Source of the DNA: a virus
IMG/VR virus record: IMGVR_UViG_3300021963_000049
Location: 32,001-96,000 of that record
Length of the DNA stretch: 64,000 nucleotides
Strand: one strand, 5' to 3'
Part shown: positions 58,337-62,680 of the stretch, piece after piece
Layout of the letters: each line of letters begins with the position of its first letter
Position numbering within the stretch: the stretch's first letter is position 1
Made by a program: the position numbers and the translations under genes
The notes under the pieces: model-generated
The model's database searches: none
Seen by the model: only the letters and a program-made list of their open reading frames with translations
What the model was told of the DNA's origin: nothing

Positions 58337-58771
58337 ATGAAAAAGTATGCTGCGGGCGGTAAAACAGATCCTGCCAAGAAAAAAGCAAGATTAGAAAAAA
58401 GAGCTAATAAAGTAATGGGAAGAGCCCAAAGAACTTATGCTGAGTCATTAGGTGCAATTGAAGATGCAAAAAAGTCTGGTACAAAGGCTGATTATGCTGG
58501 AGCTGAACAGTTGCAAAATAGATCGCTAAGACAAGAAGCAAAAGCTAAAAGACTTAAAGCTAAAGCAACTAGTATGAAAACTGGTGGTATGGTTAATTCT
58601 AATGCTAAAGTTTCTGCGCTTAAATCTGCTGGCTCTAAAGGAGTTAAGTCAGGTGTTAATCCAAAAGCTTCTGCATCTAAAGTTGCTAAAGGTAGATCAG
58701 GGGGAACTTCTAAAGCTCCTAAAACTGCTACACCTAAAGCTATGTATGGAATGTCAATGAGAAGAAAATAA
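58337..58771 (+). CDS. Small basic protein with xxGG motifs
   Basis: YAAGG, MKTGG; K/A-rich. Confidence 0.75.
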   Translation: MKKYAAGGKTDPAKKKARLEKRANKVMGRAQRTYAESLGAIEDAKKSGTKADYAGAEQLQNRSLRQEAKAKRLKAKATSMKTGGMVNSNAKVSALKSAGSKGVKSGVNPKASASKVAKGRSGGTSKAPKTATPKAMYGMSMRRK

Positions 58772-59109
58772 TGCCAAAAGATTCTTGTTATCATAGTGTC
58801 AAATCCAGATATGCAGTCTTTCCTTCAGCAAGGGCTTCTCAAGCTATTGCCAAATGTAGAAAAAAATCTGGCAAGGTAAGAAAGACTGAGAAAGGTACAG
58901 AGCTTAAAAGATGGCAAGCAGAAAAGTGGCAAGATACTAAATCAGGGAAACCTTGTGGGGCCGGTGGAAAGAATGAATACTGCCGCCCCACTAAAAGGGT
59001 TTCTAGTAAAACACCAAAAACCAAAAGTGAAATTACTCCTTCTAAACTTAGAGCTAAAAAGGCTGAAAAGTCTAGAGTAGGTATGGGAAGAAGAGTTAAA
59101 AAAGTATAA
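58771..59109 (+). CDS. Basic protein (DUF5872-like)
   Basis: FPSARAS..IAKCR, LKRW..EKW, YCRPTKRVSSKTPKT. Confidence 0.7.
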   Translation: MPKDSCYHSVKSRYAVFPSARASQAIAKCRKKSGKVRKTEKGTELKRWQAEKWQDTKSGKPCGAGGKNEYCRPTKRVSSKTPKTKSEITPSKLRAKKAEKSRVGMGRRVKKV

Positions 59110-59124
59110 TTAAAATTTATTATC

Positions 59125-59511
59125 ATGAAGAAGGTTGCAAAAGTTGCTAAAAAATCTTTAAAAAAAGCACAAGATGGTACTGTGCAAGGACCATTTACAG
59201 AAAAAACAGCAAAGTACTTAGATGAAAAATATCCTGGAACATCAATGAAATATCCTGGACCATATAATGCAGAAACCATAAAGGATATGAAAGATAGAGT
59301 TGCTCAAACATATGGTGCAACATCATGGGGTAGACCATCTGATCTTGAAAAAAGTTTAAGAAAAGATGAAGAAAAATACATAAGAAGTAATTCAGAAACA
59401 ATGGCTGATGATTATAGTATGTACCAAAAAGGTGGTAAAGTATTAAATGGAAAGTCATTTAGAAGAGGGTCTTTTACAAGTGGTTTAAGAACAAGCAGAA
59501 AACATAAATAG
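59125..59511 (+). CDS. Basic protein with AQDG/YQKGG motifs
   Basis: 128 aa. Confidence 0.7.
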   Translation: MKKVAKVAKKSLKKAQDGTVQGPFTEKTAKYLDEKYPGTSMKYPGPYNAETIKDMKDRVAQTYGATSWGRPSDLEKSLRKDEEKYIRSNSETMADDYSMYQKGGKVLNGKSFRRGSFTSGLRTSRKHK

Positions 59512-59513
59512 TT

Positions 59514-59771
59514 ATGGCAATTAAAAAAACAACAACTGCAAAAAAATCAACTCCTGCTAAGAAATCAAGTTCTAAATCTTCTTCAGTAGGTATCTCTATT
59601 ATGGGCGGTAACAAAGCTGAGATGAGAAAGTGGGAAGTTGAATCTGCTATGTCTACATTAAAAAGAGCAGCAGAGATTCAGAAAGATGCTAAGCTTATGT
59701 CAGATGTAAAGAAAATGGCACAAGAGCAAGTAAGAATGTTTAGTAATCTTGCTAATGGCAAAATGAAATAA
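59514..59771 (+). CDS. Small basic protein
   Basis: KWEVESAMSTLKRAAEI.KD..LM family; 85 aa. Confidence 0.75.
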   Translation: MAIKKTTTAKKSTPAKKSSSKSSSVGISIMGGNKAEMRKWEVESAMSTLKRAAEIQKDAKLMSDVKKMAQEQVRMFSNLANGKMK

Positions 59772-59773
59772 TC

Positions 59774-60250
59774 ATGGTAAAGTCACCGGCTTGGCAAAAA
59801 TGTATTGAATGTAACCGTGAGGGTGACAAAAATTTATTTGCTAAAGGTGGAAATGGTAGATGCAACAGATGTAGTAAAATAGAATGGGAAAAGAATAATC
59901 CTGATAAAGTAAGAGCTCAAAGACTAAGAGGAAATGCAGGTAAGAGAGCAAAAACAATGGTATGGCCTGAACCAGATTTTGATACAAGTTGGATATATGA
60001 TAAAATTAAAAATGGATATTGTGAAGTAACAGGAATTAAATTTGATTTAGAAACAGAAGTTAGATCATCTGCTCATGCAAAAAATCCTTGGGTACCTTCA
60101 ATAGATAGAATAGATAGTTCTAAGCCTTATTTAAAAGACAATGTTCAAATAGTAGTTTTTATGTACAATGTTTGCAAGTCAGAATTTACACATGATGATG
60201 TGATTAAGTTTTGTAATGCAATTAAAATAAAAGAAGATGGCAACTCATAA
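59774..60250 (+). mobile_element. Free-standing HNH-like homing endonuclease gene
   Basis: CIEC...CNRC zinc finger; YCEVTG, PSIDRIDSSKPYLKDNV...YNVCK catalytic region. Confidence 0.8.
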
Positions 60251-60524
60251 AAGTCCAAGCTGGCAAAGAAAAGAAGGGAAGAATCCAGAAGGAGGGCTTA
60301 ATGCTAAAGGTGTTGCTAGTTATAGAAGAGCTAATCCAGGAAGTAAACTTAAGACAGCTGTAACTACTAAACCATCAAAACTTGATCCGGATAGTAAAGC
60401 TGCAAAAAGAAGAAAAAGCTTTTGTGCTAGGATGTCAGGTCACAAAAAAAAGAATACATCTGCTAAAACAGCAAATGATCCAAATAGTAGAATAAATAAA
60501 GCATTACGCAAATGGAATTGCTAA
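60237..60524 (+). CDS. Basic protein (DUF6321-like, RRKSFCARM)
   Basis: WQRKEGKNPEGGLNAKG...KSFCARMSG...LRKWNC. Confidence 0.8.
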   Translation: MATHKSPSWQRKEGKNPEGGLNAKGVASYRRANPGSKLKTAVTTKPSKLDPDSKAAKRRKSFCARMSGHKKKNTSAKTANDPNSRINKALRKWNC

Positions 60525-60931
60525 ATAAAACATGTACAAAATGTAAAGTAGATAAACCATTATCTGCTGAATATTTTCCATTGCATAATAAAACTAAATC
60601 TGGGTTTGATAGTTGGTGTAGAAACTGTAGATCAACATACAGAAGTGAAACTAGAAGAGGTAACTACAGAGATATGATATCTGATAAACTTTTAAAGGAT
60701 ATTGTTGAATCTGTTACAGAGTGTGTAATATGTGGTTCTGAAGAAAAATTAGTTGTAGATCATTGTCATACTACTAATCAAATAAGAGGAATGCTTTGCA
60801 ATCATTGTAATAGAGGTTTAGGTCATTTTAGAGATAATCCTGAATTATTAGAATTTGCAAGGATTTATTTATTATCTTATACTAAAGATACTTCTGAAGC
60901 TGAAGAATATTTAGAAAAGTGGAATTGTTAA
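60512..60931 (+). mobile_element. Endonuclease VII-type homing endonuclease gene
   Basis: CTKC...WCRNC; CVICG...LVVDHCH...RGMLCNHCNRGLG. Confidence 0.85.
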
Positions 60932-60941
60932 TTTATATATC

Positions 60942-61481
60942 ATGAAAAAGATGGCCTGTGCTCAATGTGGCGGAGCAAAAATGAAGAAAGGTGGTACATC
61001 ACCTAATAAGAAAATGCAAAAAGGAGGTTCTATAGGTATTGTAGGCATGCCTAAGTATGGTAACAATCCTATGACTGATGAAGGTAGAATGCTTCAAAAA
61101 GGTGGCTCTTTTGCTCCTAACCGTGCAGTACAGTCTTCTTGTAAGAATGGTAGGGTTAGAGATGAGAAAGGAAGATGTGTTATGGCTAGAAAAATGGCCA
61201 AAGGAGGATCTTCAGATTTTGGTATGTTATCAGTAAAAGCTGGAGTAGACAAAAATCCTAATCCAACACAGGCAGATAGAATAGCCGGTGCTAAAATGCA
61301 AAAAGGTGGTAACTGGATTCAAGGTGCAATTAAAAAACCTGGAGCTTTAAAAGCATCTCTTGGAGTTAAGAAAGGTGAAAAAATACCTAAAGGTAAACTT
61401 GCTGCTGCTGCAAAGAAAGGTGGTAAACTTGGACAAAGAGCTAGACTTGCTATGACTCTTGGTAAAATGAGAAAAAAGTAA
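60942..61481 (+). CDS. Basic protein with multiple MxKGG motifs
   Basis: MKKGG, MQKGG (twice), LQKGG, MAKGG; C-terminal NWIQGAIKKPGAL...RARLAMTL domain. Confidence 0.8.
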   Translation: MKKMACAQCGGAKMKKGGTSPNKKMQKGGSIGIVGMPKYGNNPMTDEGRMLQKGGSFAPNRAVQSSCKNGRVRDEKGRCVMARKMAKGGSSDFGMLSVKAGVDKNPNPTQADRIAGAKMQKGGNWIQGAIKKPGALKASLGVKKGEKIPKGKLAAAAKKGGKLGQRARLAMTLGKMRKK

Positions 61482-61487
61482 TAAGAC

Positions 61488-62186
61488 ATGACTAATAGTG
61501 CAATTACAATAAAGATGAAACAAAGGCTGAACAAATTGGACAGCCAAGACTTTGACAACATTGAATGTTGGCAAGTTGTTGAGTCTTTTAATAAAGCTCA
61601 AGTAGAGTGGTCAAGAAGGCAATTGCATGGTATTAATGTTGTCAAGGAAGGTGATGAGCAATCTACCAGAAGAAAAGATGACATGCAAGTTTTATTAACT
61701 ACCGGAGATTTACCAGTAGCTCCAAAAGATGTTTACTACTTTGGAGATATACCAGCAGATTATTTACAATGGAAAAGAGTAGATGTTTTTGCAAACAAAG
61801 AATGCTGTGATAAGAGAAGAATGACAGTATACTTAGCTGAAGAAGGTAATGTTAATTTATTACTTAGAGATAAAGCTAAGCAACCTAATTTTGAATGGGC
61901 AGAAACATTTGCAACTCTAATAAATAATAGAGTTCATATCTATACTAATAATGAGTTTGCAATACAAAGTGCAGACTTAATATACTATAGACAACCTAGA
62001 AAAATACAAATTCTTGGTTGTGTTGATCCATATACAGGAGTTCAATCTACTGCAGAAGTACAAAGTGAATTCAAAGATGATATAATAGAATTAATAATTG
62101 ATGAGGCTGTAGCAATACTAGCAGGAGATATTGAGTCAACAAACCAATATGCTAGAAACTCAGAAACAGCTGAAAGAAATAACTAA
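61488..62186 (+). CDS. Putative head-tail adaptor/ring protein (crAss-like)
   Basis: LNKLDSQ, FNKAQ, YYRQP and IIDEAV.ILAGDIES pattern in the structural block. Confidence 0.65.
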   Translation: MTNSAITIKMKQRLNKLDSQDFDNIECWQVVESFNKAQVEWSRRQLHGINVVKEGDEQSTRRKDDMQVLLTTGDLPVAPKDVYYFGDIPADYLQWKRVDVFANKECCDKRRMTVYLAEEGNVNLLLRDKAKQPNFEWAETFATLINNRVHIYTNNEFAIQSADLIYYRQPRKIQILGCVDPYTGVQSTAEVQSEFKDDIIELIIDEAVAILAGDIESTNQYARNSETAERNN

Positions 62187-62191
62187 AAATA

Positions 62192-62680
62192 ATGGAATCA
62201 AAACCTAGAATGTTAAAAAGACCTGAAGCAGTTGTAACACAACCTAAGTCTGAACCATCAAAAGCTCAACCTACTCCTGACACAGGTGTTGGAGGAAGCT
62301 CATTAGATACTATGACTGCAGCTTGTGTATCTGAACTTATGAATGCAAGAACAAGTTTTCATAAGCTTCATTTAAAAGTAAAAGGAGATGGATCATATGC
62401 AGCACATAAAGCTCTTAATGAATTATATGATGCATTACCAGATCATGCAGATTCTCTTATAGAGGGTTATCAAGGTGCAGCAGAAAAGTTACTTTCTTAT
62501 ACTGAAGTAGCACCAAGAACTCTTGATACAGTATCTGATGCAGTAAGTTACTTAAGAGATTTAACTGCTATGGTAACTAAATTACAAGGTAAGATGCCTT
62601 ACTCAGAAATAGTAAATTCACTTGATACAGTTAAAGATACATTTAACTCTGCTAAGTATAAATTACTTTTCTTAAAATAA
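62192..62680 (+). CDS. Ferritin/Dps-like protein (DUF5856-like)
   Basis: HKLHL...YAAHKALNELYD...DSLIEGYQG...YKLLFL four-helix pattern. Confidence 0.75.
   Translation: MESKPRMLKRPEAVVTQPKSEPSKAQPTPDTGVGGSSLDTMTAACVSELMNARTSFHKLHLKVKGDGSYAAHKALNELYDALPDHADSLIEGYQGAAEKLLSYTEVAPRTLDTVSDAVSYLRDLTAMVTKLQGKMPYSEIVNSLDTVKDTFNSAKYKLLFLK

Follow-up and report, generated by a model that had tools for sequence, protein, structure and literature searches.

We have analyzed a 64,000-nucleotide stretch of DNA from an uncultured aquatic phage, comprising bases 32,001 to 96,000 of the 116,688-bp IMG/VR virus record IMGVR_UViG_3300021963_000049, which is rated 99% complete. We refer to this whole stretch as the window; its GC content is 33%. 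Within the window lies a small gene encoding a protein of the DUF6321 family, and each of its ends is overlapped by an open reading frame (ORF) predicted to encode a nuclease. The upstream ORF appears to be of the HNH type, and that downstream of the endonuclease VII (EndoVII) type. The beginning of the DUF6321 gene is found a second time as the beginning of the HNH ORF, and its end a second time as the end of the EndoVII ORF. In what follows the copies carried by the nuclease ORFs are called outer, and those at the ends of the DUF6321 gene inner. The features are collected in Table 1.

Table 1. Features of the DUF6321 locus and its flanks as interpreted here, with positions in the window (aa, amino acids; nt, nucleotides).
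Feature	Positions	Strand	Remarks
Upstream resident gene, left flank	59514..59771	+	85 aa, no family; homologues in 80 IMG/VR loci
Displaced resident DUF6321 5′ end MVKSPAWQK, now start of HNH ORF	59774..59800	+	
Putative HNH-type (PacI-like) free-standing homing endonuclease ORF	59774..60250	+	158 aa
Inserted 5′ cassette, 469 nt	59799..60267	+	HNH core and replacement gene start
Imported replacement 5′ end MATHKSPSWQR	60237..60269	+	two extra codons hold HNH stop
DUF6321 host gene, intact, hybrid	60237..60524	+	95 aa; PF19846
Imported replacement 3′ end LRKWNC-stop	60504..60524	+	other frame encodes EndoVII start
Predicted Endonuclease VII-type (HNH superfamily) free-standing homing endonuclease ORF	60512..60931	+	139 aa
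Inserted 3′ cassette, 407 nt	60525..60931	+	repeat family D3, spacing 407; breakpoints visible in alignment
Displaced resident DUF6321 3′ end LEKWNC-stop, in frame with EndoVII ORF	60911..60931	+	
Downstream resident gene, right flank	60942..61481	+	179 aa

The three ORFs overlap head to tail, by 14 nt between HNH and DUF6321 and by 13 nt between DUF6321 and EndoVII. The DUF6321 start lies 10 nt ahead of the HNH stop, and the EndoVII start 10 nt ahead of the DUF6321 stop. Given these overlaps, translation of the three is probably coupled in a chain, with the HNH ORF using the start of the resident gene. A scan for promoters and terminators found no terminator-like site on the + strand between 58000 and 62500, and 28 promoter-like sites where 22 were expected. 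The 5′ cassette is bounded by an exact 7-nt repeat, TGGCAAA (59792–59798 and 60261–60267), and the 3′ cassette by an imperfect 15-nt repeat (60510–60524 and 60917–60931).

The four termini MVKSPAWQK, MATHKSPSWQR, LRKWNC-stop and LEKWNC-stop were quoted in a first-pass annotation of this DNA, and the ORF translations contain all of them as it stated. When the 64-kb window is translated in six frames, KSP[AS]WQ[KR] and L.KWNC-stop are found exactly two times each, and all four occurrences are at this locus. The DNA is less similar than the peptides. The 5′ pair has 12 of 21 bases in common and includes a switch between the two serine codon families, while the 3′ pair has 16 of 21 in common. A repeat finder picked up the 3′ pair alone, among 14 short repeat families in an AT-rich stretch. 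The nucleotide repeat is therefore unremarkable by itself, and the case against chance rests on the peptides and above all on their recurrence in relatives, where the same end duplications are found at many loci.

The DUF6321 ORF matches PF19846 with E = 5.3e-20. The EndoVII ORF matches Endonuclease_7 (PF02945) over residues 68–120 with E = 3.4e-15, bears a DHCH...N...CN motif, and is similar to the HNH-type restriction enzyme Hpy99I over residues 34–125 (E = 2.6e-8). Across the three ORFs and their surroundings the families exceeding the Pfam curated cut-offs are DUF6321, DUF5872 and Endonuclease_7 only, and an NCBIfam search gave no meaningful match for any of the three ORFs. The HNH ORF has no Pfam match, and a phmmer search of the PDB with it found nothing. 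In PHROG it finds families with the annotations endonuclease, endonuclease VII and HNH endonuclease (E = 6.7e-22, 3.3e-19 and 1.6e-10), and a profile built from its family has a weak match, extending along almost the full length, to PacI, an HNH restriction enzyme (E = 0.014). Its nearest neighbors in the Atlas are named HNH, which we take as a lead only. On these similarities we assign the first ORF as an HNH-type nuclease with moderate confidence. Both nuclease ORFs match phrog_1035. Profile–profile comparison of the two families detected no similarity (probability 0.5%), which leaves close paralogy between the two unproven. In the 116.7-kb genome PF02945 and the HNH profile have one match apiece, so this phage offers no second example.

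A group I or group II intron or an intein was considered and rejected. No Rfam family matches 58500–62000 at E up to 1, the ORFs lie in different frames with stops, and no splicing domain was matched in Pfam.

Comparison with relatives allows the resident copy of each end to be distinguished from the incoming one. The relatives of this phage are uncultured phages of marine, estuarine and freshwater metagenomes. Three sets of loci were drawn from IMG/VR. Homology to the upstream 85-aa gene gave 80 loci, of which 70 have DUF6321, five have EndoVII at the DUF6321 stop and none has HNH, a patchy distribution for both nucleases. A scan with the HNH ORF gave 12 loci (68–92% identical). A scan with the EndoVII ORF gave 245 confirmed stretches, and the best 80 of the 245 were used for the EndoVII locus counts below. 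The DUF6321 starts free of HNH comprise 78 unique segments, and the ends free of EndoVII comprise 48 unique segments scored over 31 nt.

At the 5′ side, 60 of the 78 HNH-free starts are nearer to the outer copy, with 4 ties. The nearest relative (L096) has a DUF6321 98% identical to that of the window, with EndoVII present and HNH absent, and its start shares 18 of 21 bases with the outer copy and 13 of 21 with the inner. The codons of the outer copy match the nuclease-free 5′ alleles of L096, L031 and L009. In four nuclease-free loci (L009, L031, L015 and L019) the stop of the upstream gene is followed directly by the start of DUF6321. The window is collinear with L009 and L031 through the outer TGGCAAA, departs from them into the nuclease, and becomes collinear again from the inner TGGCAAA. 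Nuclease-free DUF6321 genes typically start MAKSPAWQRKEGK and end SLRKWNC-stop. The peptide MVKSPAWQK lies outside the part of the HNH ORF that is homologous to other phage nucleases, where alignments begin at residue 8 or later. The inner copy, by contrast, is of a kind linked to the nuclease. An AGY serine codon precedes the TGG in 5 of 8 unique HNH-linked copies vs 1 of 78 HNH-free ones (Fisher p = 9e-6), and at 9 of 11 HNH-bearing loci the downstream gene starts M[AS]KYKSPSWQ or M[AS]KTPSWQ. In six of the nine the HNH stop is held by extra KY codons, as it is by the TH codons in the window.

The 3′ side gives the same picture. The outer copy together with the intergenic TTTATATAT matches the nuclease-free loci L006, L044 and L007; against L006 and L044 19 of 21 bases and all 9 downstream bases are identical. 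The end of L006 matches the inner copy at 16 of 21 positions, vs 19 of 21 for the outer copy. Both L006 and L044 have the same downstream gene as the window, directly after DUF6321 across the same short intergenic motif. Among the 48 EndoVII-free ends 32 are nearer to the outer copy and 7 tie. The inner copy has CGC and TGC where nuclease-free alleles have AGA (35 of 48 unique) and TGT (39 of 48), and it is followed by the nuclease and not by the resident intergenic motif. The peptide LEKWNC-stop lies beyond the EndoVII core, which ends near residue 120–125. The comparison with endonuclease-free alleles that the first-pass annotation had proposed has therefore been made on both sides, and those alleles match the outer, nuclease-borne copies and not the inner ones. 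These alignments show the outer copies to be the original ends of the resident gene, and the inner copies to have arrived with the inserts.

We consider it very probable that two unrelated free-standing homing endonuclease genes have been inserted here, one at each end of DUF6321, each bringing with it the corresponding end of a donor gene. The first-pass annotation had likewise proposed insertion inside the gene with capture of the original start and stop, and this part of its proposal stands. It had also held that the replacement ends were recoded, restoring the protein and destroying the cut site. The ends are better explained as imported from a diverged donor allele than as recoded to a purpose. 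In the window the segments are too short to tell more of such an origin than the 12 of 21 and 16 of 21 shared bases.

A number of observations weigh against this interpretation. Some nuclease-free alleles favor the inner copy, in 14 of the 78 comparisons at the 5′ side and 9 of the 48 at the 3′ side. The duplicated segments in the window are only 21–27 nt long and the differences in identity are small (18 vs 13 and 19 vs 16 of 21) and rest on the continuity of the flanks. In L026 and L027 (4421–4750) DUF6321 starts MAKYKSPSW behind an ordinary gene and without a nuclease, and the stop of that upstream gene overlaps DUF6321 in the same manner as the HNH stop. The inner type of start is thus not exclusive to the cassette. 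It could be a donor-type allele in these two loci, or the footprint of nuclease loss; a search for an HNH remnant upstream of the L026 start found just the start itself. It also follows that the recoding need not be adaptive, and the inner-type start may simply be that of the allele beside which the HNH gene first lived. The HNH assignment is itself weak, given the lack of a Pfam match and the E value with PacI. Finally, the IMG/VR loci include repeats of the same phage, so that locus counts are not counts of independent events, and one of the six retrieval peptides in each nuclease scan overlapped the captured end. Adjacency to DUF6321 formed no part of either nuclease query, and many copies with decayed ends were still retrieved.

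The HNH family is closely tied to its site. DUF6321 lies directly downstream in all 11 readable loci of the 12 homologous ones, and the contig of L088 has both nucleases on a single DUF6321 gene. The captured start is intact, as MAK[ST]PAWQ[KR]C, in 4 of the 12, and including the window 5 of 13 have K[ST]PAWQ[KR]. It is decayed in two (MAKTPTLQKC and MATAALQKC), shortened to MAKSPAC in two, and unrecognizable in the remaining four (L090, L091, L093 and L092, the last without a clear start). In the family alignment the first nine residues are the least conserved, and the core is nearly invariant, with 69–90% identity.

The EndoVII family is site-bound as well. DUF6321 lies directly upstream in 78 of the 80 loci, the two exceptions being one with no upstream sequence and one with just 182 nt, in which there is no DUF6321 match. 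At 66 of the 80 the EndoVII start codon (62 ATG, 4 GTG) lies inside the Lys/Ala-Trp codons of the host gene, with the same 13-nt overlap. The loci range from 32 to 64% in GC content, and the association of EndoVII with DUF6321 thus crosses very different phages. It extends to a cultured cyanophage, S-SRM01, in which a 46%-identical EndoVII lies 48 nt past a long protein with a terminal DUF6321 domain.

The displaced 3′ end can be followed through this family as a remnant with the pattern W[NKDS]C-stop, recognizable in 38 of the 79 readable loci. In 26 it shares the stop of the nuclease, in 12 it is separate, lying in another frame or up to 341 nt downstream, and in 41 it is absent or unrecognizable. 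Displaced ends decay like junk, and all stages of decay occur. These counts bear on the idea that the shared peptides serve a function in the nucleases, for instance as DNA- or zinc-binding ends, or that they resemble each other by chance. Both ends are in frame with their nucleases, and a C-terminal cysteine could bind metal. Yet 41 of 79 EndoVII homologues do without the tail and 12 have it out of frame or downstream, the first nine residues are where the HNH family is most variable, and homology to other phage nucleases excludes both ends. Chance is further opposed by the confinement of each motif to these places in the window. We regard a functional or fortuitous origin as the least credible of the explanations considered.

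Seven EndoVII loci have longer remnants, of 20–44 codons. Their DNA is only 54–68% identical to the working end of the same gene and belongs to a different allele class; in one example the remnant reads ...TANDPNSRINKSLRKWKC and the working end ...KKPNGEPTRKALALRKWKC. The long remnants begin right after the conserved block RRKSFCARM, which fits a crossover at that block. The alternative to import that they address is duplication in place, by a staggered cut with fill-in or by slippage at insertion, followed by divergence of the copies. Such an origin would account for the short direct repeats with exact cores (TGGCAAA and TGGAATTG) that flank each insert. However, known HNH cuts leave overhangs of only a few bases, and switches between codon families (TCA to AGT, AGA to CGC) are unlikely to arise in place under selection. 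Since the long remnants are of another allele class than the working end, they rule out duplication in place at those loci and show that the working end arrived with the nuclease; taking all the loci together, we think this origin very improbable.

Variants of the EndoVII arrangement are found. A longer form of about 190 aa, with an extra zinc-finger-like N-terminal part, occurs in L016, L025, L038, L039 and L055 and also in L116–L118. It starts just past the DUF6321 stop and not inside the gene, and still ends EYL[ER]KWNC-stop, although in L038 the final cysteine codon has been lost. In L051 and L052 (6203–6622) a different EndoVII-like ORF, 37% identical, lies upstream of a gene for a 232-aa structural protein and not at DUF6321; this may be a separate homing site. 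In L113 and L114 a second KWKC-stop can be read in another frame 2 nt past the in-frame remnant; it is a further remnant stacked on the first, or else the following gene's MEML start. Isolated 3′ fragments of DUF6321, of 34 and 23 codons and ending SLRKWNC-stop, lie in L023 and L024 (5147–5248) and in L076 (4229–4297). No nuclease was detected beside these fragments, which may be the footprints of lost cassettes.

The first-pass annotation had held that the invaded gene is conserved and important. It is indeed conserved, with DUF6321 present in 530 of 50,697 phage records and dN/dS values of 0.07–0.15 in eight comparisons, and this suggests that it matters to the phage. For the nucleases the values are 0.07–0.19 for HNH in nine comparisons with homologues and 0.08–0.27 for EndoVII in eight, and both nucleases and DUF6321 are under purifying selection. 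Only two codons, W9 and W93, are invariant in 103 unique DUF6321 alleles, and one lies at each insertion junction. Such placement is as expected if the nucleases target the best conserved DNA in the gene.

The arrangement is also found in independent assemblies. Logan contigs from runs X2 and X3, whose samples and studies are not those of the possible source of the record, span the junctions of the 85-aa upstream gene with HNH, of HNH with DUF6321 and of DUF6321 with EndoVII with 0 differences; the arrangement is therefore not an assembly artefact. Other contigs are nuclease-free and lose their fit to the window exactly at 60261 (5 in X2, 7 in X3 and 8 in X5), running upstream with codons of the outer type, ...TCACCAGCA. 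Others depart from the window at 60524, or connect 60524 with about 61218. Joints with one short side (e.g. 59528 to 60928, side 24) were disregarded as unreliable, and parts of the stretch lacking cover in X4 and X5 carry no evidential weight. Read depth is far higher over the DUF6321 core than over either nuclease, but since it is summed over many organisms we regard it as no more than consistent.

Insertion of two homing endonucleases with donor ends suggests a mechanism in which each mobile unit would consist of a nuclease gene and the DUF6321 end next to it in the donor allele. The process would start with a break near a conserved tryptophan codon of a nuclease-free allele, and the nucleases are predicted to cut near W9 and W93. 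Repair from a nuclease-bearing genome would copy the nuclease together with the donor gene end, pushing the resident end outward while leaving DUF6321 whole. The displaced 5′ end now gives the HNH ORF its start codon and first nine codons, and the displaced 3′ end gives the EndoVII ORF its last six or seven codons and its stop. The imported ends would be uncuttable, because the insert splits the site and the inner half differs in sequence, and the units would spread by homing. Both homology arms would lie inside DUF6321, one being the gene body and the other the displaced end. Cassettes could thus enter the gene in any neighborhood, and this would account for how they have spread where the genome is highly mosaic.

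In most loci the DUF6321 stop is followed by an AT-rich motif resembling TTATATATA (60932–60941 in the window), whatever gene comes next. It may be a shared expression signal, and would lengthen the right homology arm.

The mosaic character of the region could itself be the explanation. The duplicated ends would then be scars of homeologous or illegitimate recombination at the conserved ends of lysine-rich genes, through ordinary shuffling of modules, with the nucleases as passengers. Nearly every relative has a different order of genes in the interval from the upstream gene to the 232-aa structural gene, the motif downstream of DUF6321 is kept regardless of the next gene, and in L026 and L027 an inner-type start stands behind a non-nuclease gene with the same overlap of its stop. 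Against this, most scars in the loci examined adjoin one of the two nuclease families, the remnants in L023, L024 and L076 being without one. The families are moreover tied to their sites (11 of 11 loci for HNH, 78 of 80 for EndoVII) over the whole range of GC content, and both nucleases are under purifying selection. We judge shuffling unlikely, if less so than duplication in place.

Homing by free-standing endonucleases is familiar from T4-like phages, where SegF, SegG and MobE (intronless homing) are found beside a conserved target gene, have a patchy distribution among relatives, and are presumed to spread by break repair with co-conversion of the flanks. To our knowledge the T4 Seg and Mob elements lie between genes and leave no duplicated gene ends, whereas the inserts described here are inside a coding region. 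T4 mobA with the gene 60 bypass element is a case of a nuclease that travels with sequence altering its own target. There the ribosome bypasses an untranslated insert, while here a substitute coding end is supplied. The arrangement is like that of intron and intein homing endonucleases in that the nuclease is inside the gene, the gene product is kept and both homology arms are within the target gene, but nothing is spliced.

The closest parallel we have found is in fungal mitochondria, limited to what is described in the available part of the source (PMC3630166). There an endonuclease ORF inside the 3′ end of a gene (mORF) brings a foreign C-terminus that completes the gene, for example in atp6 of Allomyces macrogynus and atp6, atp9, cox2 and nad3 of Glomus. 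It is the native C-terminus, moved downstream, that matches relatives lacking the endonuclease, and the ORF is sometimes in phase with this displaced end. The phage locus has each of these elements: an inserted end that completes the gene, and a native end displaced beyond the nuclease that matches nuclease-free relatives. It differs from the mORFs, as that part of the source presents them, in being in a phage and not an organelle, and in having nucleases of the HNH superfamily and not of the LAGLIDADG or GIY-YIG type. It also has the mirror-image 5′ form, in which a start codon is captured, both ends of a 95-codon gene are occupied, and the EndoVII start is built into host Lys-Trp codons. In Aeromonas phage Aeh1 a homing endonuclease, mobE, also lies inside a coding region, that of nrdA; according to the available part of that report (PMC3045599) nrdA is split into two polypeptides held together by new tails, sequences born of the insertion rescuing function. 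DUF6321 remains undivided, since the insert brings a spare end with it. The available part of Barth et al. 2023 (PMC10448857) describes duplication within nuclease genes, and not duplicated host gene ends. In a text search of the literature outside subscription journals and supplements we found no duplicated host gene ends beside phage homing endonucleases, and no paper naming DUF6321. What appears to be new is the phage setting with nucleases of the HNH superfamily, the mirror-image 5′ form, and the occupation of both ends of one tiny gene.

By bringing a spare gene end, a selfish nuclease can thus reside within a coding region of a phage and require no splicing or splitting of the gene. More broadly, though we would put it at slightly below an even chance, these may be 'end-swapping' homing elements, comparable to introns and inteins without the splicing, that enter any phage with DUF6321, drive exchange between its allele classes and make the gene a widespread two-ended hot spot. 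If so, they would drive that exchange among unrelated aquatic phages, as the spread of the loci in GC content would indicate, and with the EndoVII start locked in the invariant Lys-Trp codons of the host, translation of that nuclease would depend on translation of the host gene. The locus also points to gene-end swapping by nucleases as a way for hybrid genes to arise in abundant aquatic phages, whose structural regions are mosaic. For the two nuclease families the candidate target is delimited unusually well, to a few codons about an invariant tryptophan, and each family offers natural occupied, empty and decayed alleles. There is also a lesson for annotation: when a nuclease ORF is free-standing, a few codons at its beginning or end may be those of the neighboring gene.

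The locus stands in a string of small lysine-rich ORFs (58337–61481) between a 340-aa ORF and the 232-aa structural gene. Among its members are DUF5872 (58771–59109), DUF6321 and, in the 179-aa ORF, a C-terminal module. Relatives have these modules in other orders, and the marine virus AG-345-E15 has them as fusion proteins of 632 and 454 aa in which DUF6321 is internal; besides the window this concerns L001 245–3507 and L002 2390–4701. Further downstream, the ORF at 62192–62680 has a PHROG match (E = 3.3e-22) in a family whose annotation is starvation-inducible (Dps-like) DNA-binding protein, and adjoins a virion structural protein homologue at 61488–62186.

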